Source: Betaproteobacteria bacterium RIFCSPLOWO2_12_FULL_62_58 (lineage in GTDB: Bacteria; Pseudomonadota; Gammaproteobacteria; Burkholderiales; SG8-41). From it: a DNA stretch of 64,000 nucleotides. The stretch spans positions 18,232 to 82,231 of the forward strand of contig MERI01000103.1 of NCBI GenBank assembly GCA_001772005.1, written 5' to 3'. Below, one piece after another: positions 3,415-40,469 of this stretch (position 1 is the stretch's first letter; the number at the start of each line of letters is the position of its first letter). Position numbers and translations under genes: made by a program. A model generated the notes under the pieces. That model was given only the letters and a program-made list of their open reading frames with translations. It did no database searches and was not told the origin of the DNA.

Positions 3415-4572
3415 ATGACTGCGACAGAAGAACCCGTGGATCGAGAAGAGCCGCAACGTATGCGCGACGCGACGAATGGGCCAACGTTAGGTGACTCGGG
3501 AACAGAAACTACGGACGGCTACCTTTATATCCTCGTCAATCAATACGTCCCAAGTCTTGTCAAGATAGGTTACACCGACCGCGATCCCCATGTTCGCGCA
3601 ACCGAGCTTAGCGGCACAACCGGGGTTCCAGGGCAATGGGTGGTTAGACACTACTGGCTGCTTGAGAACGCCTTCCAGTGGGAGCAGAGGATATTTTTGG
3701 CGCTACGTAAGCACCGCGAAACTGGCGAGTTTTTTAAAATCAGCGCCGAGACCGCTATTGGCCGGATAGAACTATTGCTACTCCAAGCAGGCGCAATAGA
3801 TGCGTCCGGCATGTCCGCAGCAGGGCGGCGCGAACTAGCACGACAGGATGCAGCAAGAAAACGAGAAGAACAAAGGCTCATCGACCAACAGCAAGAACAA
3901 ATTGCCGAACAAGACAGACAACGACAATTTGACACTGCTTGGGAACAAGGTTGGCCGAGCCACGTGCAACCCTGGTGCAAGCTAGTTCACTTCTGCGGTG
4001 AACAGATGAAAACGTACTCGCGTCCGGGCCTTCTCCATAAAATGATAAACGGCACCATTGACGTTGACATTAGTGTGACCAAATGCCTCGTCCACATTCT
4101 CGGATGGGAGCGTCGTAGCTTTCCGAGCACCCAGAAGGTAGCACGTGAGATCAACGAATTAATTCCCCACCTCCGCAAATGGCATGGATACCCGCGTTTG
4201 CTTGCGCTTCTTCCAGAGATGTTCACTGCCTCACGCCGAGCACGCGAGTTCATTCTTCATCTAAACAGCCAGTATGGGCGACGGACGCCAAGTGGATGGG
4301 GCGGCAACGGACCTTGCTGCAAGCGGAGCCAATATTGGAATGGAGGAGAATGGTACGAGAAACCAGATATTACGTTTTTATACGGGATGCCCGAAACTTG
4401 GCCAGCGTTAGAGATACGATTGGCAACGCAAAAAGTCTTTGGGCTAAGTGGTGACGAGGCTACCGCGCTCTTGCAAAGCGAACCCGCGATGAGAACCACC
4501 CTGATGAACCTCGCAACAAACTCACTTCCTCCCGAGTCCCAGTACGGGAAGGATTGCGTCCCATACGTCTGA
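3415..4572 (+). CDS. T5orf172 (GIY-YIG-like) domain protein with coiled coil and unknown C-terminus; start uncertain
   Basis: GYLYILVN..LVKIGYT..DPHVRATELS..TGVP..EQRIF..GEFF; codon usage differs from the core genes. Confidence 0.72.
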   Translation: MTATEEPVDREEPQRMRDATNGPTLGDSGTETTDGYLYILVNQYVPSLVKIGYTDRDPHVRATELSGTTGVPGQWVVRHYWLLENAFQWEQRIFLALRKHRETGEFFKISAETAIGRIELLLLQAGAIDASGMSAAGRRELARQDAARKREEQRLIDQQQEQIAEQDRQRQFDTAWEQGWPSHVQPWCKLVHFCGEQMKTYSRPGLLHKMINGTIDVDISVTKCLVHILGWERRSFPSTQKVAREINELIPHLRKWHGYPRLLALLPEMFTASRRAREFILHLNSQYGRRTPSGWGGNGPCCKRSQYWNGGEWYEKPDITFLYGMPETWPALEIRLATQKVFGLSGDEATALLQSEPAMRTTLMNLATNSLPPESQYGKDCVPYV

Positions 4573-23484: not shown

Positions 23485-24624
23485 TTATTGCTTAGCCGGC
23501 TTCACGGCAGCACCAGCCTCGGGCGGGCGGGCCAACAATCCGCCTTTCGGCCGACAAGTAGAGATTCCACGAGTCGGAGTTATCGAGCTTTGGTACAGGT
23601 GACAGGCCACATGGTGCTCAGGGCTGACTTCCCGCCATGGGGGCGCCACCCGCAAGCAAATATCCATCACACAAGGGCATCGCGTCCGGAAGCGGCAACC
23701 GGATGGAATGTCGATCGGAGTCGGCACCTCGCCCGGTAGCTCGACTCGCTTGCGAGCAGCTGTCGGGTCGGCAATCGGCACTGCCGCCATCAGGCTCTGT
23801 GTGTATGGGTGGGCCGGGTGATCGATCACCTCATCTGTCTCTCCGTGTTCGACGAAGACGCCGAGGTACATGATCGCGACCCGATCGCAGACGTAGCGAA
23901 CGGTCGAGATATCGTGCGAGACGTAGAGCACGCCGAGGCCAAGATCCTTTGAGAGCGTCTCGAGCAGGTCGAGTATCCCTGCTCGAATCGATACGTCGAG
24001 CATCGAGATCGGCTCGTCGGCGACGACAAAGTCAGGCTTGAGCACGAGCGTGCGGGCGATGACTGCGCGCTGCCGCTGACCACCGGATAATTCGTGGGGG
24101 TAACGGTGAAGGAAGTGGCGAGGCTGCAGATTCACCCGCTCGAGCGACTCGACGACGCGGACGGCCCGCTCGGCGCGATCGCCGATACCGTGAATCTTGA
24201 GCGGCTCCTCGACCGCCTCGCCCACGGTCAGCCTGGGATTGAGGGAGCCATAGGGGTCCTGGAAAATGATCTGGGCCCGACGCCGGAATCGCCGGAGGCC
24301 ATCGCCGTGGATATGAGTGACTTCCTCGCCGCTCAGGAAGATGCTGCCGGCACTCGGCTCATAAAGCCGGACGAGCGTCATTCCCAGCGTCGACTTTCCA
24401 CTGCCGCTCTCGCCGACCAGACCAAAGATACTTCGGCTCGATACGCTCACGTCGACGCCATCAACCGCCTTGACGGTTCGGGGCGGCCCGCGCCGAACGA
24501 GCGCCGCGATCACACCGGTGTCGATCGGGAAGTGCTTCTTCAGTCCTTTGGCCTCGATCACCGGGGCGGGTGTAGCTGCCTGATCCTGGACCAGCCTATC
24601 GCCCGGCTCGCGTCGAGCGGTCAT
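23485..24624 (-). CDS. Peptide ABC transporter ATP-binding subunit (OppF/DppF-like)
   Basis: GESGSGKST, LSGGQRQR, VADEP, HPYT, GCRFRTRC. Confidence 0.92.
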   Translation of the reverse strand: MTARREPGDRLVQDQAATPAPVIEAKGLKKHFPIDTGVIAALVRRGPPRTVKAVDGVDVSVSSRSIFGLVGESGSGKSTLGMTLVRLYEPSAGSIFLSGEEVTHIHGDGLRRFRRRAQIIFQDPYGSLNPRLTVGEAVEEPLKIHGIGDRAERAVRVVESLERVNLQPRHFLHRYPHELSGGQRQRAVIARTLVLKPDFVVADEPISMLDVSIRAGILDLLETLSKDLGLGVLYVSHDISTVRYVCDRVAIMYLGVFVEHGETDEVIDHPAHPYTQSLMAAVPIADPTAARKRVELPGEVPTPIDIPSGCRFRTRCPCVMDICLRVAPPWREVSPEHHVACHLYQSSITPTRGISTCRPKGGLLARPPEAGAAVKPAKQ

Positions 24625-24661
24625 CGATCGTTCTCCAAGCGCAAGCGTGTGCTCCAGCAGG

Positions 24662-25759
24662 TTAGCCGAGGCCGATTCGCACAGCAACCTCGTCCCAGGT
24701 CGATTTCTCCTTCGCCCGTTCCCGCAAACTGGCGGCCTGATCGGTGTAGTGGCACGCGGCCGAGTGATCGGTCCCAACGTGGCGCAGTGATGGCTTGAGG
24801 TCCCGGCAACGGTCGCTCGCGAAAGGACATCGCTCGGCGAAGCAACAGCCGCGCGGCGGGTCGATCAAGCTTGGTGGACTGCCCGGAATGGCGATCAGCT
24901 TGTTGATCGCGCCCTTGATGTTCGGGAATGCGTTCTTGAGCCCCATCGTGTAAGGATGGCATGGCTCCTGAAGGACACCGATCGTCGGCCCGTATTCGAC
25001 GATCTTGCCCGCGTACATGACGGCCGTGTCATTGCACGTCTCGGCGATGACGGAGATATCGTGCGTGACGAGGATCATCGAAGCGCCCACCGCCTCATGA
25101 ATGCGGCGAATCCGGCCGAGGATTTGGTCTTGCGTGATTACGTCGAGCGCAGTCGTCGGCTCGTCGGCGATGATCAAGCCCGGCTGCAGTACCAGGGCGA
25201 GCGCGATGATCGCGCGCTGGCGCATCCCTCCACTAAATTGGTGCGGATAGTTCCTGAGCCGGTCTGGAGCCAGCTCAACCAAATCGAACATCTCGACGGC
25301 TCGCTGCCAGGCATCGTCATAGCTAACGTCCCCGTGCGCCCGGATCGCCTCGACGATCTGGTCGCCAACCCGATAGACCGGATCGAGGCTATTCATCGCG
25401 CTCTGCGTGATCAGCGACATTCGCGTCCAGCGAATCTGGCGAAGCTCGTTCGACTTCATCGCCAGCACGTTGCGGCCGTCGAGTCGGACCTCGCCGTCAA
25501 CGAACGCATCCTCGGGAAGCAGTCGGAAGATCGCTTTAACCAGCGTCGTCTTGCCGCAGCCCGACTCGCCGACCATGCCGAGATAATCGCCCGGCCGCAC
25601 CTCGAAGCTGACGTCGTCCACGGCCCTGACGTAGCCGCTCCGGGTCGCGTAGTAGGCGCGAAGGCGGTCGACGGAGAGCTCCCCCGGCCTCGTTTGTTGC
25701 CGAAGGTGCTCGATCAACCGGGACTTACGAGTCGTTGGCCTCGCCGCCTGCTGGGTCAT
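24662..25759 (-). CDS. Peptide ABC transporter ATP-binding subunit (OppD/DppD-like)
   Basis: GESGCGKTT, FSGGMRQR, IADEPTTALD, HPYT. Confidence 0.92.
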   Translation of the reverse strand: MTQQAARPTTRKSRLIEHLRQQTRPGELSVDRLRAYYATRSGYVRAVDDVSFEVRPGDYLGMVGESGCGKTTLVKAIFRLLPEDAFVDGEVRLDGRNVLAMKSNELRQIRWTRMSLITQSAMNSLDPVYRVGDQIVEAIRAHGDVSYDDAWQRAVEMFDLVELAPDRLRNYPHQFSGGMRQRAIIALALVLQPGLIIADEPTTALDVITQDQILGRIRRIHEAVGASMILVTHDISVIAETCNDTAVMYAGKIVEYGPTIGVLQEPCHPYTMGLKNAFPNIKGAINKLIAIPGSPPSLIDPPRGCCFAERCPFASDRCRDLKPSLRHVGTDHSAACHYTDQAASLRERAKEKSTWDEVAVRIGLG

Positions 25760-31095: not shown

Positions 31096-32259
31096 ATGTC
31101 CGGCAGCACGTTAGGCAAGCTTTTTTGTGTCACGTCATTTGGCGAGAGCCACGGGCCGGCGATCGGCTGCGTGGTCGACGGCTGCCCGCCGGGCATGCAC
31201 CTCAGCGAAACGGACATTCAGGCTGATCTCGACCGCCGCAAGCCGGGCACCTCGCGCCATGTCACGCAACGGCGTGAAGAAGATATCGTGGAAATTCTTT
31301 CGGGCGTCTTCGAAGGCAAAACCACCGGCACACCGATCGCGCTCTTGATCCGCAATGTCGATGCGCGAAGCCGGGACTACTCCAAGATCAAGGACATGTT
31401 CCGTCCGGGGCATGCCGACTACACCTACTGGCAGAAGTATGGCATTCGCGACTACCGCGGCGGCGGCCGGCAGTCGGCGCGCGAGACCGCCGTGCGCGTC
31501 GCCGCTGGCGCGATTGCGAAAAAGTGGCTGCGTGAAAAATACGGCGTCGTGATCCGCGGCTACCTCGCGCAATTGGGGCCGATCGCGATCCCATTCAAAT
31601 CATGGGAGGGGGTCAACACCAATCCATTTTTCGTTGCTGATGCCAGTGTCGTGCCGCAGCTCGAGGAGTTCATGGACAAGCTCAGGAAGTCGGGCGACTC
31701 GGTCGGCGCGAAGATCACGACCATCGCTTCCGGCGTGCCGGTCGGCTGGGGCGAGCCGGTGTACGACAAGCTCGACGCCGATCTCGCCTACAACATGATG
31801 AACATCAATGCGGTGAAAGGCGTCGAGATCGGCGCCGGTTTTGCCGCGGTCACGCAAAAGGGCACCGAGCATTCCGACGAGATGGCGCCGCAGGGATTCT
31901 TGTCGAACAACGCCGGCGGCATCCTCGGCGGCATCTCGACGGGGCAGGACATCGTGGTCAACGTGGCCGTCAAACCCACATCGAGCATCCGGCTCGCGCG
32001 GCGCACCGTCGACAAGCAGGGCAATCCGACCGTGATCGAAACCCACGGCCGCCACGATCCGTGCGTGGGCATTCGCGCGACTCCGATCTGCGAAGCGATG
32101 ATGGCGTTGACGTTGATGGATCACGCACTGCGGCACCGCGCGCAAAACGCAGACGTCGCGTGCGAAACGCCGAAGATCCCCGCGGCCGCGCCGCAGTCGG
32201 TGATCGACCAGCTACGCAACGCTGCCGCGACTGAGAACCCCGATCCCGACGAGGCTTGA
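31096..32259 (+). CDS. aroC: Chorismate synthase
   Basis: [28 protein letters not shown]. Confidence 0.97.
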
Positions 32260-32264
32260 TTGCC

Positions 32265-32858
32265 ATGAACGAAACCGCAACCGTTTACCAACTGAGAATT
32301 GCGCTCGCCTATATCGAACCCAGCGTCTGGCGGCGGCTGGAGGTCCCGAGTACCATGACTTTCGGTGATCTTCACGGCGCGATCCAGGCGGCGATGGGCT
32401 GGGAGGACTGCCACCTGTGGGCGTTTTACGTTGGGAAGACAGAAGTCAGTCCGGATCCGGAACAGTTTGATTTCCCCGGCGAGCCGCGCGCCCAAGCGGC
32501 GGACTGGACCGCGCTCGATGACATGCTCGCCGGCCGCCGCATCAAGTTCCGCTACATCTACGACATGGGTGATGACTGGCTGCACGAGATCAAGGTCGAA
32601 AAGATTCTCGCCCCCGAGCCGGGTGTGCAGTACCCGCGCTGCACCGGTGGCGAGCGCGCCTGCCCGCCGGAGGATTGCGGTGGGTTCCCTGGCTACTACA
32701 ATGTTCTGGAAGCGCTGGCGGACCCGAAACATCCTGAGTACGAAGAGATGCTCGATTGGATCGGCGGCGAGTGGGACCCGGAAGCCTTCGACATCAAGGC
32801 CGTGAACGCGAGGCTCCAGCCCCGTAAACGCAGGCCTGCACGACGCCCGAAAAAGTAG
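32265..32858 (+). CDS. Plasmid pRiA4b ORF-3 family protein
   Basis: YQLRIAL..VWRRLEVP..LHGAIQ.AMGW...HL, YIYDMGDDWLHEI, ACPPEDCGG. Confidence 0.88.
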   Translation: MNETATVYQLRIALAYIEPSVWRRLEVPSTMTFGDLHGAIQAAMGWEDCHLWAFYVGKTEVSPDPEQFDFPGEPRAQAADWTALDDMLAGRRIKFRYIYDMGDDWLHEIKVEKILAPEPGVQYPRCTGGERACPPEDCGGFPGYYNVLEALADPKHPEYEEMLDWIGGEWDPEAFDIKAVNARLQPRKRRPARRPKK

Positions 32859-32979
32859 TCATCCGGTCGCCGTAAGGCGCCGAAAGGTGCATGTCCGGCC
32901 GCGAATCTGAACCGTTGCTGGGGTGGGCAGGGCGTACGCAGCATTGCTCCCGCCGTGCACGCTGCATTAAGATGCCCAG

Positions 32980-35922
32980 ATGGCGAAAAGAACAAGCAGC
33001 CCGCGCCCGAAAAAGGCCTCCGTAATTTCCCGCCAGACGGCGGAGTACCGCCATCCGGAAGAAACACCGGCCCGGCCGGATGTTGGCACCCAGCCGCAGT
33101 TCAAGAAGCGCGCCGCCCCCAGAACATACCGCTACGACTCATCGCTCGCCCCCGCGCTTGATTGGGATGGGCAGAACCCCGCGCGCGAACAGGGCGAGGC
33201 GCTGATCGCCGCGCTGGAAGCGCGTATTCGAAATCTCCGCGAGACTATCGCTAAAGTGGCATCTGGCAATTCCGCGCAGCTTGCAAGCACGACCGCCAAA
33301 AAGAAGGCCCCCTCTCCCTCGAAGGGAGAGGGTTGGGGTGAGGGTGAACCTGAACTGCGACGCCTGCTTGACGAAGCCGAGGACGCGCTACGCAAGCTCA
33401 AGGCGTTGTCCAAGTCCTTCCTGAATTGGGCCGGCAAGGCCGAGCGCCTGTCGTTCGACGTCCCGACGCTGCCGCTCTTCATCCACGAGCGGCTGTCCAC
33501 CCGCGCCATTCTCGAAACCCTGAAGGGCCACAAGCGCGACAAGCAACTGGATCTTTTTGACCTCTTTTCCGATCCGCAGCGGCCGATCCACGACCAGGTG
33601 CTGCGCGCGTACGAGTATCAGGACAAGTGGGTCAACCGCATGATCCTCGGCGATTCGATGGTGGTGATGAACTCGCTGCTGCACTACGAGTCGCTCGGCG
33701 GGCAGGTGCAGATGATCTACATGGACCCGCCCTACGGCGTGAAATTCGGCTCCAATTTCCAGCCGTTCGTGCGCAAGCGCGATGTCACACATGGCGACGA
33801 TGACGACATGACGCGCGAACCGGAGATGGTGCAGGCGTACCGAGACACCTGGGAGTTGGGGCTGCACTCATACCTCACCTATATGCGCGACCGGCTGTTA
33901 CTGTCGCGCGAATTGCTTGCGCCGTCCGGTTCGATCTTCGTGCAGATTTCCGACGAGAATCTGCATCATGTGCGCGAAGTGATGGATGAGGTTTTTGGAG
34001 CAGAAAACTTTGTCAGCGCGATTACCTTTAAGAAAACGAGTAGTTCCTCCGGCGCATTGCTGTCTACTGTTGCCGATTATTTGCTCTGGTACGGAAAAGA
34101 TCGGACACGACTGAAATATCGGCAACTGTTTCAGCCCAAAGTAATTGGTGATGAGGGCGGAACGCAATACACATGGGTTGAATATCCGGACGGAACACGG
34201 AAGAACCTCACCGCACGAGGTGATTTCTCGAACCTGCCTTCTGGAGCGAAGGTATTTCGGCAAGATAATTTGACAAGCCAACGTCCAGCAAACGAAAACG
34301 ACGTTCGCGAGTTCGAGTTTGAAGGTAAGACATTTACTCCGGGGCGAGGGACCTTCAAAACCGATCGAAAAGGTCTTGATAACCTCAAGAAATCGAAGCG
34401 TCTTATTGCCCTTGGGAATACGTTGGCCTACGTTCGTTATTTCGACGACTTTCCAGTTTTTCCCATGTCTAACGTTTGGCAGGACACGGTGACCTCAGGG
34501 TTCGCAGCAGATAAGCTGTATGTCGTTCAAACTGGAACAACTGTGGTTGAGCGCTGCGTGCTCATGACCACCGATCCGGGCGACATAGTGCTTGACCCCA
34601 CCTGCGGTTCTGGCACGACAGCCTATGTTTCTGAGCTGTGGGGGAGACGCTGGATCACGATCGACACTTCCCGCGTGCCGCTTGCGCTTGCGCGGCAGCG
34701 GCTGCTCACGGCGACTTATGCTTGGTTCGAATTGAAGGATGAGTCGGGTGGGCCTGCGGGTGGCTTCATCTATCAGCGCAGGCAAAACCAGAAAGGCGAA
34801 GAAGTTGGCGGAATCGTCCCACACATAATGCTCAGTACCATTTCCAACAACGAGCCGCCGCAGGAAGAAGTGCTCGTCGATCGGCCCGAAGAGACGAAAG
34901 GTGTCACACGTGTTTCCGGTCCGTTCGTGGTCGAGGCGACGATACCAACGGCGATGGATGTCGAGGGTACCCACCCCCATCCTGACCTTCCCCCTGAGGG
35001 GGAAGGAAAGCAACTCCCTCCCCTTCAAGGGGAGGGTAGGGGTGGGGATGGGGCGGCAGATTTCATCGAGCGCATGCTGGAAGTGTTGCGCCGCTCGCCG
35101 GTGCTGCGGCTGGAGGGCAATCGCACGGTGACGTTGAAGAACGTGCGTAGGCCGGCGAAAACGCTTTCGCTCACGGCCGAGGCGATGGTGGTGAACGGAA
35201 ACGGAAAATCCCCTCACCCCAGCCCTCTCCCGGGGGGAGAGGGAGGTAAGCCGGTCGCATTGGTGTTTGGACCCGAGAACGGCGCCGTGGCGGAAAAACT
35301 CGTGTGGGAGGCGGCTCGCGAAGCCAAAGCCAAGGATTACGACCATCTCTACGTCATCGGTTTCGCAATCCAGCCGCCCGCGCGGCAGTTCGTCGAGTCC
35401 TGCGAGCAGGTGACGGGCATCGCCGCGACTTACGTGCAGGCGACGCCCGACCTGATGATGGGCGACCTGCTCAAGAACATGCGCTCGTCGCAGATTTTCT
35501 CGGTCTGCGGCCTACCTGAGATCGCGCTGCGTAAGACCAAGGCGCCGGCGCACGAAATTTCGAAGGAAAAAAAGGCCGCGCCGTGGTATGAGGTCGAGCT
35601 GCTCGGTCTTGACGTGTTTGACCCGGGAACAATGGAGGTCCATCACAAGCGCGGCGATGACGTGCCGGCGTGGTTACTCGATACCGACTATAACGGCCTC
35701 TCGTTTCACGTCTGTCAGGCGTTTTTTCCGCGCACCGCTGCATGGGACAACCTCAAGCGCGCGCTGAAGGGGGAGTACGAAGACTCGGTCTGGGAACACC
35801 TCGCGAAAAACGTCTCGGTACCCTTTGAGGCAGGCGAGCAAGGGCAGATCGCCGTCAAGGTCATCGACGACCGCGGCAACGACCTGATGGTGGTCAAAAG
35901 CTTGAAGGAGGCCCGTGGATGA
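32980..35922 (+). CDS. mod: Type III-like R-M DNA methyltransferase (N6A/N4C, beta class)
   Basis: IYMDPPYG precedes DPTCGSGTT with a variable region between; C-terminal IAVKVIDDRG; upstream of a Res helicase-nuclease. Confidence 0.9.
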   Translation: MAKRTSSPRPKKASVISRQTAEYRHPEETPARPDVGTQPQFKKRAAPRTYRYDSSLAPALDWDGQNPAREQGEALIAALEARIRNLRETIAKVASGNSAQLASTTAKKKAPSPSKGEGWGEGEPELRRLLDEAEDALRKLKALSKSFLNWAGKAERLSFDVPTLPLFIHERLSTRAILETLKGHKRDKQLDLFDLFSDPQRPIHDQVLRAYEYQDKWVNRMILGDSMVVMNSLLHYESLGGQVQMIYMDPPYGVKFGSNFQPFVRKRDVTHGDDDDMTREPEMVQAYRDTWELGLHSYLTYMRDRLLLSRELLAPSGSIFVQISDENLHHVREVMDEVFGAENFVSAITFKKTSSSSGALLSTVADYLLWYGKDRTRLKYRQLFQPKVIGDEGGTQYTWVEYPDGTRKNLTARGDFSNLPSGAKVFRQDNLTSQRPANENDVREFEFEGKTFTPGRGTFKTDRKGLDNLKKSKRLIALGNTLAYVRYFDDFPVFPMSNVWQDTVTSGFAADKLYVVQTGTTVVERCVLMTTDPGDIVLDPTCGSGTTAYVSELWGRRWITIDTSRVPLALARQRLLTATYAWFELKDESGGPAGGFIYQRRQNQKGEEVGGIVPHIMLSTISNNEPPQEEVLVDRPEETKGVTRVSGPFVVEATIPTAMDVEGTHPHPDLPPEGEGKQLPPLQGEGRGGDGAADFIERMLEVLRRSPVLRLEGNRTVTLKNVRRPAKTLSLTAEAMVVNGNGKSPHPSPLPGGEGGKPVALVFGPENGAVAEKLVWEAAREAKAKDYDHLYVIGFAIQPPARQFVESCEQVTGIAATYVQATPDLMMGDLLKNMRSSQIFSVCGLPEIALRKTKAPAHEISKEKKAAPWYEVELLGLDVFDPGTMEVHHKRGDDVPAWLLDTDYNGLSFHVCQAFFPRTAAWDNLKRALKGEYEDSVWEHLAKNVSVPFEAGEQGQIAVKVIDDRGNDLMVVKSLKEARG
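33308..33346. repeat. In-frame palindromic element in mod (PSPSKGEGWGEG)
   Basis: CCCTCTCCC-TCGAA-GGGAGAGGG-TTGGGGTGAGGGTG. Confidence 0.85.
34972..35052. repeat. In-frame inverted doublet of the palindromic element in mod (HPHPDLPPEGEGKQLPPLQGEGRGGDG)
   Basis: CACCCCCATCCTGACCTTCCCCCTGAGGGGGAAGG and CCCTCCCCTTCAAGGGGAGGGTAGGGGTGGGGATGGG. Confidence 0.85.
35210..35245. repeat. In-frame palindromic element in mod (PHPSPLPGGEG)
   Basis: CCCCTCACCCCAGCCCTCTCCC-GGG-GGGAGAGGG. Confidence 0.85.
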
Positions 35923-36338
35923 TCACGCAAGCCCAGGCTGATCAGCTGATTGCTGCGTTGAAAGAGGCCGCTCGCAACGACCCTTTCATCTGGCAGGAAA
36001 ATTTGCGGCAGGACGAAATAGTTCTCGCGGTCGGCGATCGAAAACTCAAGTTCGTGCTGACGTTGAAGCGCAATTTGAATGAAATCAAGCTGCACATGCG
36101 CACACAGGATCGAAACATCGGATTAGCGCGAATCGATAACGCACCATATCACTGCAATCCGGATGGATCCGAGATCAGGAGCCAGCCTCATTTGCATCTT
36201 TACCGAGAGGGACATGAATTGGCATGGGCGGAGCCGATCGATTGGTGCGATTTGGGTCGTCCGTTGGATACGCTCGAAAAGTTCCTGAATATCATTAACA
36301 CTCGCTTCCGAGCGGGCTACTCGGTGTCTCTCATCTGA
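35919..36338 (+). CDS. DUF6978-like protein
   Basis: LARID...HCNPDG....PHLHLYREG...WA motif; ATGA overlap with mod. Confidence 0.7.
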   Translation: MITQAQADQLIAALKEAARNDPFIWQENLRQDEIVLAVGDRKLKFVLTLKRNLNEIKLHMRTQDRNIGLARIDNAPYHCNPDGSEIRSQPHLHLYREGHELAWAEPIDWCDLGRPLDTLEKFLNIINTRFRAGYSVSLI

Positions 36339-36340
36339 AT

Positions 36341-37150
36341 ATGGCCGCAATACTGAAACCTGACTTGGCCAAGGAGTACATCGACTGGCTGCGTGGGCGG
36401 GTTGTTTCTATCACCCGTGGTGAAACGCAAATACTCAGCACACCATTTCTCGATCCTTTCAACGATGGCATCAAGATTCATGTTGAGTCAAGAAACGGGG
36501 AGATTGTGCTTCATGACAACGGGGACACCTTAGACAATCTGTCCGCCTTGGGTGTAAAGATAGAAGAGTCTGAAAGAAGGAAGGCCCTAATCCAGCGCGC
36601 CACTGCAGGGTGCGCCGTAACGTTCAATGGGAGCCGCTTAGAGACTATTGCGACGCCGGCTAGTCTTCCGCAGAGAGCCCATTTTCTTATTACGGCAATC
36701 CTGCGGCTCAATGACCTTTGGATGAGCACCACTGGTCACCGTTGGGCCGACTTTTTCGAAGTTGTTGCGGAATTCTTGGAACAAAAGCAAGTTCTCTTTA
36801 CCCCGAATGTTTCCATACCAGGGCGCACGGTGGATCACAATATTGATCTGGTCATCCCGTTGCCGAAGCGCCGTGAGCGTTTGGTGAAATTGATCGGTGA
36901 TCCCAAACCTCAAACTGCCAAGGTGATCTCGTTTACGTGGATGGAATTGCAGGAGTCACGACCTGAAGCGGAACGCGTGGTCGTGCTTAATGATGTCTAT
37001 GCGCCGGATCCCCTGGAAGAGGAAAGCGAGCAGGAGTTCAAGCGAATCAGCGAGCAGACCATATCGATCCTCAGTGGCTACAGCAACGCAGTTTATAAGT
37101 GGAGCCAGCGTGGCCAACCTGAGTTCAGTGGGCTGTGGCAGCCAAATTGA
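36341..37150 (+). CDS. DUF1828/DUF1829-like protein
   Basis: STPFLDPFNDGI..LHDNGDTL in the N-terminus; FFEVVAEFL..NVSIPG..HNIDLVIP in the C-terminus. Confidence 0.75.
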   Translation: MAAILKPDLAKEYIDWLRGRVVSITRGETQILSTPFLDPFNDGIKIHVESRNGEIVLHDNGDTLDNLSALGVKIEESERRKALIQRATAGCAVTFNGSRLETIATPASLPQRAHFLITAILRLNDLWMSTTGHRWADFFEVVAEFLEQKQVLFTPNVSIPGRTVDHNIDLVIPLPKRRERLVKLIGDPKPQTAKVISFTWMELQESRPEAERVVVLNDVYAPDPLEEESEQEFKRISEQTISILSGYSNAVYKWSQRGQPEFSGLWQPN

Positions 37151-37161
37151 CAGGGTATGTG

Positions 37162-37365
37162 ATGTCAATCAGAGCGATGACACATCAGGAACGGGAGCAA
37201 GGTTACGCCGTGTGCGAGTGCGGGAGGTTTGCGCACATATGGCGCGCGAGCGTTTTGAGGCAGTTACCGCGTGACTATCACGGAGAGCTTTGCCCCGACT
37301 GCAGTCTTTGGATGTGCGCCGTTGAAAAACTGCGGGTAAGTCACAGTACGACTGCTCGCTCATGA
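37162..37365 (+). CDS. Small Cys-rich (Zn-ribbon-like) hypothetical protein
   Basis: CECG..CPDC; ATGA overlap with res; start uncertain. Confidence 0.35.
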   Translation: MSIRAMTHQEREQGYAVCECGRFAHIWRASVLRQLPRDYHGELCPDCSLWMCAVEKLRVSHSTTARS

Positions 37366-40300
37366 GCAACTTCGAAGTCACCGAACCGATCCTCAACTCA
37401 CCGTTTGAGGAGCCGCGCGAGCACTGGTGGATACTCGAGGGCGAGGTGCCCGAGCGTCGGCCGGGGCGGCGCTTCGCGCATTACTTCTACCGCGACCCGC
37501 GGTCGGCGACGAAGGAATCTGCCGAAACCGACGTCGGCACGATGATCGAGCTCAAGGGCGTCACGCGCATACGCGAGCGGCTCGCGGCATGGCGCGCTGC
37601 GGGTTATCCGGGCGCGTCGCGCACGACGCTGGAACTGCTGGCTTACTGGAGCCGCGAGGGGCGCAAACATCCTCTGTTCTTCGCGCAGCGCGAGGCAGCA
37701 GAGACGGTGATCTTTCTGACCGAAGCGCGCGCGGATTTCCGGCAGGGCATCGATATTCCGCGCGACGAGCCTTCCCCGGACAAGAAGGCGGAGGGCTACG
37801 CCGGCTTTCTGCGCTATGCCTGCAAGATGGCGACGGGCTCAGGCAAATCTACCGTCATGGCGATGCTCGCCGCGTGGAGCATCCTGAACAAGCAGGCGGA
37901 CCGCTCCGATGCGCGCTTCTCCGACGTGGTGCTGATCGTTTGCCCGAACGTGACGATCCGCGACCGGCTGCGCGAACTGGACCCGGAGACGGGCGATGCC
38001 AGCGTTTATCGGACGCGCGATCTGCTGCCGGCACACCTGATGCCATTGATCGTGAACGGCAAAGTGTTCGTCACCAACTGGCATGTCTTTGAGCCCCAGA
38101 CGCCGCAGGTGGCCGGCGACAGCGCAAAGGTCATCCGCGCCGGCGTGCCGGAGCGCCGCGTCGAAACCATCATCATCGGCGAGAAGACCACGACCGCGCG
38201 CGGCAAGCGCTATCTCACGCAGTCGGACTTCGAGCGCCAGGTCGCGGCCGGGTTGGTTACGGTCATCGAAGAGGATCGCGACAAGACCGGCAACCTCGTG
38301 AAAGCGCGTGTCGAGTCGGTGCGCTACCTGGAGAGCGACACGGCGCTGGTTGATCGCGTGCTGGGGCGGGAGATCGGCGGCAAGCGGAATCTTCTCGTTC
38401 TGAACGACGAAGCGCACCACGCGTACCGCATACGCCGTGAGGAGCCCGACGAAGACGAAGACGAGGACGAGGATGACGACCTCGATGAGTTCTACCGCGA
38501 GGCGACGGTCTGGATTGACGGGCTGGATAAGGTCCAGAAGCAGCGGGGGATCAACTTTTGCGTCGATTTTTCGGCGACACCGTATTACCTCGGCCGCGTC
38601 GGACAGGAGACGAACCGCCCGTTCCCGTGGGTTGTGAGCGACTTCGGCTTGATCGACGCGATCGAGTCGGGGCTGGTTAAGATACCGCAACTCGCCGTGC
38701 GCGACACGACCGGCTCGTCAATCCCAGGTTACTTCAACATCTGGCAATGGATACTGCCGCAGTTGACGACATCGGAGCGGGGCGGCAAGAAGGCGGCGCC
38801 CAAACCGGAAGCAATTCTCAAGTACGCGCATACACCGATCGCGATGCTCGCCGGCTTGTGGGAGGAGGAGTGGCGCCGCAGGCAATCTGACGATGAGGAC
38901 AAACGCCCGCCCGTTTTCATCATCGTGTGCAAGAACACGCAGGTTGCGCGCGTGCTCTATGAATGGATTGCCGAAGACAAGCCGCCGCAGGGTATCCCAC
39001 ATTCCAAGATCGCATCGTTCAGGAACGCGAACGGCGAGATCAACACGATCCGCGTGGACTCGAAGGTGGTTGCCGAAACCGACACCGGCGAGGCCAAGTC
39101 CGACGAGTCGCGCTGGATGCGTTTCACTCTGGACACGGTGGGCAAGACGGTTTGGCCGACCGACACACTCGGCCGGCCGGTGTATCCGGAGGGCTTCGAG
39201 GCGCTCACGGAGAAGCTCGGCCGCCCCATGTACCCGCCCGGGCGTGACGTGCGCTGCATCGTGAGCGTGGGCATGCTCACCGAGGGCTGGGACTGCAACA
39301 CCGTGATGCATATCGTGGGCCTGCGCCCATTCATGTCACAGCTTCTGTGCGAGCAGGTGGTCGGGCGTGGTCTGCGCCGAACACGTTATGAACTGAACGA
39401 CGACGGGAAATTCTCGGAGGAAACGGCCAAGGTTTTTGGGGTGCCGTTCCAGATTATTCCATTCAAGGCAAATCCCGGCGGCGTGGCCCCGCCTCCGGCG
39501 AAGCGCTGGCATGTGCGCGCATTGCCGGCGAAAGCAATATATGAGATTCGTTTCCCGCGTGTTGAGGGCTATACTCAGGCGATTCGCAATCGTATAGCGG
39601 TCAATTGGGAGAGTATTCCGCGGATCACGGTGAATCCGCAGAAGATTCCTCCTGAAGTCCAACTGGGCAGATTGCTGCCCAGTGCGACTGGACGCCTCTC
39701 AGTCTTGGGGCCCGGCAGATCCGAAGAAGCGACGCTCGACCCTTATCGAGCACAGCGCCGGCTGCAGGAACTGAAATTCGATCTCGCTCAAGCGCTGGTC
39801 CGTGACTGCGTGCAGAGCCGGCGTTGCGAGGTGCCTGCGCATGCACTTTTTCCGCAGCTTCTCGGTGTGGTCGAGCGCTATTTGCGTGAAAAAGTGGTCG
39901 TTCAAGCACCGGCCGATCTGCGCGACGTATTTCTCGCGCCGTACTACACCTGGGTCGTAGAACGACTGACGGATGCAATTGCTCCCGACACCGCTGCAGG
40001 AGAAGCGCCGGAGATGCCGCGATACGAGTCGCGGCGCGGCGCCGGATCGACGGCGGAAGTTGACTTCTGGACTAGTCGCGAGCCGCGGGAAGTCGTACGC
40101 AGCCACGTCAACTTCATGGTTCCTGATACGAAGAAATGGGAGCAGTCGGCAGCATACTTGATCGACACGCATCCCGCGACGCAGGCTTTCGTGAAAAATG
40201 CCGGGCTCGGATTTGCAATTCCCTACGTCCATAACGGCCAGACGCATGAATATATTCCAGATTTCATCATTCGGCTTAAGGGCGATTCGGATCAATACCT

Positions 40301-40469
40301 CATTGCTGAAACCAAGGGCTTTGACGAACTGGAAGAGGTGAAGCGGGAAGCGGCGGAACGGTGGGTGAACGCGGTCAACGTTGAGGGAAGTTTCGGTCGC
40401 TGGCGCTACAGGGTCGCGAAGCAGGTCTCCGACATTTCGCGCCTGATATCTTCCGCCGCCGGGGCTTGA
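37362..40469 (+). CDS. res: Type III-like restriction subunit (SF2 helicase + PD-(D/E)XK nuclease)
   Basis: MATGSGKS, LNDEAHH, FSATP, MLTEGWD, QVVGRGLR, YIPDF..AETKG. Confidence 0.9.
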   Translation: MSNFEVTEPILNSPFEEPREHWWILEGEVPERRPGRRFAHYFYRDPRSATKESAETDVGTMIELKGVTRIRERLAAWRAAGYPGASRTTLELLAYWSREGRKHPLFFAQREAAETVIFLTEARADFRQGIDIPRDEPSPDKKAEGYAGFLRYACKMATGSGKSTVMAMLAAWSILNKQADRSDARFSDVVLIVCPNVTIRDRLRELDPETGDASVYRTRDLLPAHLMPLIVNGKVFVTNWHVFEPQTPQVAGDSAKVIRAGVPERRVETIIIGEKTTTARGKRYLTQSDFERQVAAGLVTVIEEDRDKTGNLVKARVESVRYLESDTALVDRVLGREIGGKRNLLVLNDEAHHAYRIRREEPDEDEDEDEDDDLDEFYREATVWIDGLDKVQKQRGINFCVDFSATPYYLGRVGQETNRPFPWVVSDFGLIDAIESGLVKIPQLAVRDTTGSSIPGYFNIWQWILPQLTTSERGGKKAAPKPEAILKYAHTPIAMLAGLWEEEWRRRQSDDEDKRPPVFIIVCKNTQVARVLYEWIAEDKPPQGIPHSKIASFRNANGEINTIRVDSKVVAETDTGEAKSDESRWMRFTLDTVGKTVWPTDTLGRPVYPEGFEALTEKLGRPMYPPGRDVRCIVSVGMLTEGWDCNTVMHIVGLRPFMSQLLCEQVVGRGLRRTRYELNDDGKFSEETAKVFGVPFQIIPFKANPGGVAPPPAKRWHVRALPAKAIYEIRFPRVEGYTQAIRNRIAVNWESIPRITVNPQKIPPEVQLGRLLPSATGRLSVLGPGRSEEATLDPYRAQRRLQELKFDLAQALVRDCVQSRRCEVPAHALFPQLLGVVERYLREKVVVQAPADLRDVFLAPYYTWVVERLTDAIAPDTAAGEAPEMPRYESRRGAGSTAEVDFWTSREPREVVRSHVNFMVPDTKKWEQSAAYLIDTHPATQAFVKNAGLGFAIPYVHNGQTHEYIPDFIIRLKGDSDQYLIAETKGFDELEEVKREAAERWVNAVNVEGSFGRWRYRVAKQVSDISRLISSAAGA

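Follow-up and report, generated by a model that had tools for sequence, protein, structure and literature searches.

A DUF6978/DUF1828-DUF1829 gene pair between mod and res of a type III-like restriction-modification island matches the phage-defence candidate PDC-M24 and is predicted to form a heterocomplex

Two coupled genes between mod and res

We analyzed a 64,000-nucleotide stretch of contig MERI01000103.1 (assembly GCA_001772005.1) of Betaproteobacteria bacterium RIFCSPLOWO2_12_FULL_62_58, referred to as the window, in which two genes of the + strand separate the methyltransferase gene mod from the helicase-nuclease gene res of a type III-like restriction-modification (R-M) operon. Gene A (35919..36338) encodes a DUF6978 protein of 139 amino acids (PF22398, 2.5e-25). 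Gene B (36341..37150) encodes a protein of 269 amino acids, in which DUF1828 (PF08861, 7.9e-17) covers residues ~13-133 and DUF1829 (PF08862, 7e-07) residues ~130-269; B also matches phrog_5059 at 4.6e-39. The stop codon of mod overlaps the start codon of A in the sequence ATGA, an AAGGAGG motif is found 8 nucleotides 5′ of this start, and the spacer between the A stop and the B start measures 2 nucleotides. The GC content of A and B (0.517 and 0.520) is lower than that of mod (0.586), res (0.616) and the flanking host genes aroC, MFS (major facilitator superfamily) and leuC (~0.63). The same is true of the GC content at third codon positions (GC3), which is 0.62 for A and 0.585 for B against 0.70 for mod, 0.75 for res and 0.81 for the host genes. 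An earlier note, written from the sequence of this stretch, had described two coupled, AT-richer genes at this place, and both open reading frames (ORFs) were recovered at exactly these coordinates. That A and B are chance ORFs was considered and rejected.

No consensus promoter was detected on the + strand between 32000 and 41000. The same scan gave 14 terminator-like sites, which is within the shuffle expectation (9.2, standard deviation 3.3); those on the + strand before the end of res, at 35708 and 36733, are both weak, with three G-C pairs each. The A-B pair is probably co-transcribed with the surrounding R-M island.

The pair is a catalogued defence candidate

The earlier note took the pair to be undescribed, but both genes match the phage-defence candidate (PDC) PDC-M24 of the PADLOC database. 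The PDC-M24A model PDLC04538 (1.1e-21) spans residues 1-127 of A, and three further PDC-M24A models match it at 3e-12 to 8.5e-3. The PDC-M24B model PDLC04539 (1.7e-48) spans residues 7-259 of B, which is also matched by PDLC04540 (6.4e-18). The genes stand in the order of the PDC-M24 system, A then B, adjacent and on the same strand. A and B are almost certainly one copy of the mobile two-gene cassette catalogued under this name.

In the source preprint (Payne, Hughes, Fineran and Jackson 2024, bioRxiv 10.1101/2024.01.29.577857), 145 PDC candidates were obtained from genes that lie within BREX, DISARM and type I R-M loci, and they were added to PADLOC. These candidates were predicted by ‘guilt by embedding’, the seven systems validated there being Hma-embedded and not PDCs. 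The present copy shares with PDC-M24 the gene models, order, adjacency and embedding in R-M genes. It differs in that it sits in a type III-like operon of the BPTD_3080 family in the order mod-res, a host system unused by the original embedding screen, and in that an additional small Cys-rich gene accompanies the pair. What appears to be new here are the model-based fold assignments for B, the predicted A-B complex and the candidate residues that these predictions name.

The DUF6978 family comprises 923 representative clusters at E≤1e-3 in a library of 1.84 billion proteins, nearly all of 140-155 amino acids, and the ESM Atlas matches of A were DUF6978 clusters only. A search through 8000 candidates for longer, fused forms of A gave no match at E≤1e-3; as evidence against such forms this is weak. 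One representative of 243 amino acids (P0204) carries DUF6978 at residues 4-120 and then, at 178-221, the first half of DUF1828; it may be a fusion of A and B, or else an artefact of read-through or assembly. In the E. coli control genome DUF1828 passed the cut-off, whereas DUF6978 was found in none of the 14 control genomes, showing that DUF1828 proteins also exist without a DUF6978 partner. A scan of the viral contig set with the B alignment found no relative.

A and B travel together as a mobile cassette

Searching with B recovered 68 loci (numbered here with the prefix L), four from species genomes and 64 from metagenomes; the near-duplicates L027/28, L037/38, L045/46, L054/55 and L059/60 are kept in the counts. 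A lies directly 5′ of B in 51 of the 53 informative loci, defined by at least 450 nucleotides upstream of B, and is full-length in 46 of them (tblastn); the exceptions are L013 and L072. Sequence conservation of B is 47-92%, except for 44% in the decayed fragment of L073; a second comparison gives 55-100%. The order A then B was also preserved in all five distant pairs examined, which were found by profile search and have B proteins 21-35% identical (tblastn). These pairs come from a Pseudomonadota genome, the Acetobacter plasmid pAOF1, the IncP plasmid pRSB223, the Lactobacillus prophage Lj965 and the Streptococcus prophage Javan249. In a sample of 301 Verrucomicrobiota genomes, A was found directly upstream of six of seven B-like genes. 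Six plasmid and 13 prophage records carry the pair. DUF6978 occurred in 0 of 60 relatives and in four of 400 other genomes sampled from the phylum. The two genes thus form the conserved module that had been proposed, and the pair is a self-contained mobile cassette.

The neighbourhoods of the cassette are varied. A mod or res of the families of this locus flanks it in 16 of 59 informative loci (mod in 10/45, res in 14/48), and R-M genes are immediately adjacent in nine of 22 long loci according to Pfam and PADLOC annotation. L017 has the mod/res type of the window and L028 the variant res-A-B-mod. Type I hsdM/hsdS genes precede A-B-RadC in L030, L031 and L035; the pair adjoins type IIG/ISP genes in L001 and L003, and REase_III with an MNT/HEPN pair in L043. 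L026, cut at its 5′ end, reads A-B-RadC-PDC-S62. The pair stands beside TIR, Schlafen and RelA/SpoT genes in L056, beside integrases in L019, L042 and L059, and, in prophage Lj965, between a repressor/metalloprotease module and the sie and integrase genes. The association with R-M and other defence genes, which the earlier note had named as a check, is borne out by these counts.

In the four loci L026, L030, L031 and L035 (type I R-M), a RadC-like JAB-domain gene lies 3′ of the pair every time. It is followed by DUF6880/PDC-S62 in L026 and L030, and by PDC-M41A/B in L031. A-B-RadC may be a three-gene variant or a stack of candidates.

The further suggestion that the pair guards the R-M system, in the sense of PrrC, was not sustained. 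Nothing ties A or B functionally to this R-M system, because the cassette is also found in many settings of other kinds, prophages and housekeeping neighbourhoods among them. PrrC and RloC, anticodon nucleases of type I R-M operons, are likewise nested in an R-M operon and are thought to act as back-up defence. However, they combine an ABC-ATPase with an anticodon nuclease, whereas PDC-M24 has neither, is not limited to one R-M type and shows no indication of monitoring the R-M enzyme. A search of Pfam, NCBIfam and PADLOC gave no ABC-ATPase or anticodon-nuclease match for A or B, PADLOC gave no PrrC hit, and PrrC-like guarding was rejected.

B is modelled with a possible chaperone-like domain and a nuclease-fold domain

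The AlphaFold2 (AF2) model of B consists of two domains, with a mean predicted local distance difference test (pLDDT) of 81.4. In the C-terminal domain, helices at residues 134-148 and 190-206 and strands at 154-160, 165-174, 178-185 and 211-216 build the alpha-beta-beta-beta-alpha-beta core of the PD-(D/E)xK superfamily. VIA-align matched this domain to PspGI (Z 10.7, root-mean-square deviation (rmsd) 4.9 over 157 aligned residues) and AF1548 (Z 10.5, rmsd 3.1 over 111), then to BstEII (9.5), Cdn1 (9.4), Bax1 (9.3), VC1899 (9.1) and NucS (8.9). The homing endonuclease I-Bth0305I (Z 8.2) and XisH are also among the VIA-align matches of B. Foldseek gave AF1548 (9.6e-4), followed by Card1, Can2 and VC1899. 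These fold searches bear out the earlier suggestion that the C-terminal half of B is restriction-endonuclease-like.

Conservation was followed across 18 diverse B sequences. Position 140 (E140 in B) is acidic in 17, D169 is kept in 17, position 179 (E179) is acidic in 16 and position 202 is D or E in 17, while R207 is found in all 18 and D218 in 17. Within the clade, E140, D169, E179 and K183 are invariant or nearly so. Nuclease activity of B is plausible.

The N-terminal domain (residues ~13-133) resembles other proteins. The best VIA-align matches were PA14_16140 (Z 9.6), 3cxj (8.6), SycN-YscB (8.2) and STM2138 (8.1), followed by Spa15 (7.7), SpcU (7.7), ExsC (7.5) and InvB, with an overall range of Z 7.2-9.6. 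The domain was compared with the alpha-beta-beta-beta-alpha-beta-beta-alpha fold of the SycE/SycN class of chaperones, again with middling Z. The modelled domain thus appears secretion-chaperone-like, that is, of a protein-binding type, as a resemblance of fold only. A sequence search of Protein Data Bank (PDB) chains with the A and B profiles returned chance matches only, namely FprA (E 0.77) and designed beta-propeller repeats that have ‘NPDG’ in common.

The conserved face of A lies in the predicted interface with B

Protein A carries the motif R71-x-D73, H78-x-N80-P-D-G83, H91-x-H93. As the earlier note had pointed out, this motif is present. It is invariant in 20 close homologues, and 45 representatives of the family (26-62% identity) keep its positions invariant or to at least 90%. 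The conserved residues are R71, D73, H78, N80, P81, D82, H91, H93 and E97. The AF2 model of this small, beta-rich protein shows a helix, an antiparallel sheet and a C-terminal helix. Foldseek against PDB and BFVD gave no match at E≤1e-3, and the best Z in the wide VIA-align search was 5.1; No fold can thus be assigned to A, but this is no proof of a new one. Pfam detected no recognisable DNA-binding domain in A. The arrangement H91-x-H93-x3-E97 together with H78 resembles what we take to be the 3-His-1-Glu metal site of cupin type, HxH(x3-4)E with one more His on a beta-barrel; no cupin was found among the Foldseek and VIA-align matches of A.

Complex prediction, another of the proposed checks, indicated that A and B bind each other. 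Co-folding gave an ipSAE (interaction prediction score from aligned errors) of 0.74 in each of three runs, while the best of three controls reached 0.00. As a rough mark only, the alignments used being our own, 116 of 157 solved complexes and two of 215 mismatched pairs reach 0.74. The runs share at least 79% of the contacts, and the partner pLDDT is at least 88. On the B side, the interface involves residues 20-45 and 65-71, including the invariant loop T34-P-F-L-D-P-F-N-D-G43 (TPFLDPFNDG). On the A side, it involves residues 48-61, 66-81, 87, 93 and 101-104, among them R61, R71, D73, H78, N80, P81, H93, W103 and A104. Nine of the 20 clade-invariant residues of A fall among the 27 interface residues of its 139 (Fisher p=0.004). 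Since the conserved face of A lies in this predicted interface, the His cluster would be, at least in part, a docking or composite site. The cluster had been read as catalytic or metal-binding; its presence and conservation hold, and its predicted location between A and B suggests that it may be a docking or composite site and not a free active site.

Loss of A beside an intact B

In five loci B is full-length and uninterrupted next to a defective or missing A: A is frameshifted in L015, L036 and L041, carries an internal stop in L018 and is absent from L013. Among the loci found by searching with B, the opposite case, a damaged B next to an intact A, does not occur; most of B is gone from L072 and L073, where A is absent or partial. 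This pattern of broken A beside intact B, and never the reverse, speaks against a toxic B with A as its antitoxin. It could reflect biology or assembly error. If real, it fits A as the sensor or activator of a silent nuclease, which we prefer, or a harmful A with B as its inhibitor, which is the main rival.

Interpretation and alternatives

Taken together, the best explanation is that A and B form a heterocomplex acting as a second layer of anti-phage immunity on its own, with B as the effector and A as the sensor or activator; we give this reading a probability of about 0.5. The conserved R-x-D / H-x-NPDG / H-x-H face of A would dock on the TPFLDPFNDG loop of B. The nuclease domain of B would be the effector, and A its sensing or activating partner and not its antitoxin. 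A phage cue at the A-B interface would switch the nuclease on, and phage or host DNA would be cut.

A bolder version of the docking step, which we put forward as tentative and rather doubtful, is that the A motif (R71, D73, H78, N80 and H93, with H91 and E97 nearby) and the TPFLDPFNDG loop of B build one composite metal- or ligand-binding pocket. The pair would then be a new kind of two-protein switch, in which a chaperone-like domain covers the site where a protein of new fold acts or senses, and a phage cue either frees A as a toxin or licenses the B nuclease. If so, riding in R-M operons would give the switch co-expression with first-line immunity.

Several known systems have a related design. 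The CARF/SAVED sensor-nucleases Card1, Can2, Cdn1 and VC1899, which are among the best fold matches of the B C-terminal domain, share the logic of an N-terminal sensor and a C-terminal PD-(D/E)xK effector. Their N-terminal domain is, however, of the CARF/Rossmann type and their ligand a cyclic nucleotide, whereas the N-terminal domain of B is chaperone-like and its predicted ligand is protein A. The type III secretion chaperones SycN-YscB, Spa15, SpcU, ExsC and InvB, matched by residues ~13-133 of B at Z 7.2-8.2, are protein-binding domains that hold a partner; in contrast, B has no secretion-system context and is fused to a nuclease-fold domain, and at such middling Z the likeness is one of fold only. 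DS-6/HipAD (DefensePredictor, PMC13092281), a defence system of two genes that has been validated, has DUF1829 in its second protein, which is proposed to bind its partner and DNA. It differs by a HipA-like kinase as the partner, by DUF3037 in place of DUF1828 and by the absence of DUF6978.

A number of observations weigh against the preferred explanation. A is modelled with moderate confidence only (pLDDT 74.9, with 53-75 across the five models), and the N-domain Z values of B (~7-10) are in the middling range by the tool's own note and come from a domain modelled within full-length B. The acid/Lys spacing on strand 3 of B is E-x3-K and not the canonical (D/E)-x-K, and position 183 varies family-wide (K in 8, Q in 6 and R in 4 of 18 sequences), so that the C-terminal domain could be DNA-binding but not DNA-cutting. 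Family-wide, the strongest invariants (Y13, P35, D38, D59, G61, R80 and D125) lie in the N-terminal and not in the nuclease domain of B, and the interface shows no significant enrichment of conserved B residues (p=0.08 in the clade, p=0.33 family-wide). The A frameshifts come from metagenome assemblies and could be assembly errors, and the asymmetry of decay is biased because the loci were found by searching with B. Some copies lie in plain housekeeping surroundings, such as between hemF and hemY (L051) or in an HlyD/ABC (ATP-binding cassette) transporter cluster (L058). A literature search for PDC-M24, DUF6978 and DUF1828/DUF1829, which did not extend to the supplementary PDC lists of the source preprint, found no experiment on the A-B pair. 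Finally, the DUF3037+DUF1829 protein of HipAD is proposed as a DNA-binding, antitoxin-like partner and not as an effector (PMC13092281).

This last point also belongs to the alternative that survives best, in which the roles are reversed. A would be a small metal-dependent toxic enzyme using H78, H91, H93 and E97; the N-terminal domain of B would plug its active face through TPFLDPFNDG, its C-terminal domain would mainly bind DNA for autoregulation or sensing, and phage infection would free A. Secretion chaperones hold their cargo inactive, and the N-terminal domain of B, where the family-wide invariants are concentrated, appears to share their fold. The predicted interface covers the most strongly conserved residues of A (p=0.004), the presumed 3-His-1-Glu likeness would provide A with a metal site, and the decay pattern, with B intact and A broken or absent in five loci and no reverse case, fits a tolerated orphan antitoxin. 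However, A has no detectable sequence or fold similarity to any enzyme or toxin, and the acidic residues of the nuclease fold are conserved across the 18 diverse B sequences, which pure DNA binding would not need. The small-upstream, large-downstream order is the more usual one for antitoxin and toxin, and the asymmetry is drawn from five metagenome loci collected with B as the query. We consider the reversed assignment unlikely, although it is the rival to be taken most seriously.

A type II toxin-antitoxin or addiction module, with B as a toxic nuclease, A as its antitoxin, stabilization of the island, plasmid or prophage as its function and phage defence as a by-product, would account for the coupled layout with the small gene first, for the tight binding predicted (0.74 against 0.00), for the six plasmid and 13 prophage records and for the position in a horizontally acquired island. 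But an intact B with a broken or missing A, as in L013, L015, L018, L036 and L041, should be lethal if A were the sole restraint, and A lacks a recognisable DNA-binding domain; we regard this explanation as improbable.

The precise intergenic insertions in unrelated operons, between hemF and hemY, in the HlyD/ABC cluster, between mod and res and after hsdS, together with the foreign composition (GC3 0.585-0.62) and the fold matches of B to I-Bth0305I and XisH, recall a selfish mobile nuclease cassette. Like free-standing homing endonuclease genes, it would insert between conserved genes (mod/res, hsdS/hsdR) to no benefit of the host. This has little probability in our view: no terminal repeats or target duplications, nor any direct or inverted repeats of note, flank the cassette at this locus, it recurs next to varied R-M and defence genes (9/22 long loci and 16/59), both proteins are highly conserved, and the second, non-nuclease gene is always retained.

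A role of A and B as built-in accessory subunits of this R-M enzyme, serving for example the loading of Res, specificity or timing, is very improbable despite the translational coupling to mod and the recurrence of mod-A-B-res with mod 53-71% and res 63-78% identical (in metagenome loci and metagenome-assembled genomes labelled Verrucomicrobiales and Blastocatellia), which shows a unit that travels together, since in 43 of 59 informative loci the pair lacks a neighbouring mod or res of these families (type I, IIG, other R-M or none), mod and res adjoin without an insert in the nearer res relatives L096 and L098, and canonical BPTD_3080 loci read res-mod with nothing embedded.

PDC-M24 is one of many catalogued candidate immune systems, and the present copy supplies a concrete structural model with named residues. 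Its value is raised somewhat by this model and by the puzzling fold and role of A; otherwise it adds a further copy to a known candidate. If the pair turns out to be protective, the cassette would be an additional defence family, present in several bacterial phyla and in their prophages and plasmids, and a further example of layered immunity packed in one operon.

The acquired island and other features of the window

Between mod and res, the A-B pair rides as cargo in a type III-like R-M island of ~8.2 kb (32256..40469, + strand), which was acquired horizontally and lies between aroC and the MFS gene in the order PRiA4-mod-A-B-small Cys gene (zf)-res. The first gene is PRiA4_ORF3-like (32256..32858, +; PF07929, 6.9e-67). 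mod (32980..35922, +) encodes an N6/N4 DNA methyltransferase of 980 amino acids (PF01555, N6_N4_Mtase, 2e-29; PADLOC MTase_III PDLC03632, 3.7e-161). res (37362..40469, +) encodes a BPTD_3080-family helicase-nuclease of 1035 amino acids (NCBIfam NF046055, 1040 bits for a cut-off of 800; ResIII), with a weak TnsA-like endonuclease match at its C-terminus.

The sequence aroC-MFS-leuC is contiguous in 13 of 19 relatives, a count that includes L123 from the unpublished genome G014 and becomes 12/18 without it. The site being empty in these relatives, the island from the PRiA4-like gene to res is an insertion. The same-genus genome of L114 has the PRiA4-like gene and mod at the same site, but the contig stops short of A. 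All six genes are found in this order in L010, the closest relative. Identities between the window and L010 are higher for B (92%), A (86%) and zf (84%) than for res (76%) and mod (71%), the two mod proteins being divergent in their central part (residues ~350-500). The PRiA4-like gene 5′ of mod is found in L010 (67% identity) as well as in L114.

The start of the PRiA4-like gene overlaps the aroC stop in the window, and L116 and L121 have a 42-43% identical PRiA4-like gene directly 3′ of aroC. In L116 the MFS gene follows with no R-M genes between, and the L121 locus ends shortly after the PRiA4-like gene. This suggests that the 3′ side of aroC is a recurrent insertion spot.

The small Cys-rich ORF between B and res, missed in the earlier note, lies at 37162..37365 (+) and encodes 67 amino acids with a CxC...CxxC...C pattern; its stop overlaps the res start (ATGA). 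Homologues 46-84% identical occupy the B-res gap of L010, L011, L013, L014 and L044, with a partial one in L018, and the gene is absent where this gap measures 26-45 nucleotides. It has no Pfam or PADLOC match and could be a zinc-ribbon regulator of res.

A res of the BPTD_3080 family scored over the cut-off in 25 of 401 genomes. The same genome carries a second, canonical copy (G000:C67:4313-7303, L087; 1354 bits), with mod downstream of res.

No other complete PADLOC system was detected in the 64-kb window, and no cyclase or CRISPR genes lie near the pair. There are two isolated PADLOC-matching proteins, at 23488-24777 (-), with mad3 (7.6e-27) and mad8 (2e-11) on the one protein, and at 3415-4569 (+), with PDC-S57 (8.2e-16) on the other. 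No partner genes for them were detected in the window, and these matches probably reflect generic domains.

Finally, mod contains GC-rich palindromic repeats of the type CCCTCTCCC...GGGAGAGGG at 33309-33344, 35016-35036 and 35211-35246. They are in frame and encode Gly/Glu/Pro-rich inserts, of which the one at residues ~741-754 is absent from L010. They look like elements of the repetitive extragenic palindrome (REP) or miniature inverted-repeat transposable element (MITE) kind, tolerated within the coding sequence.

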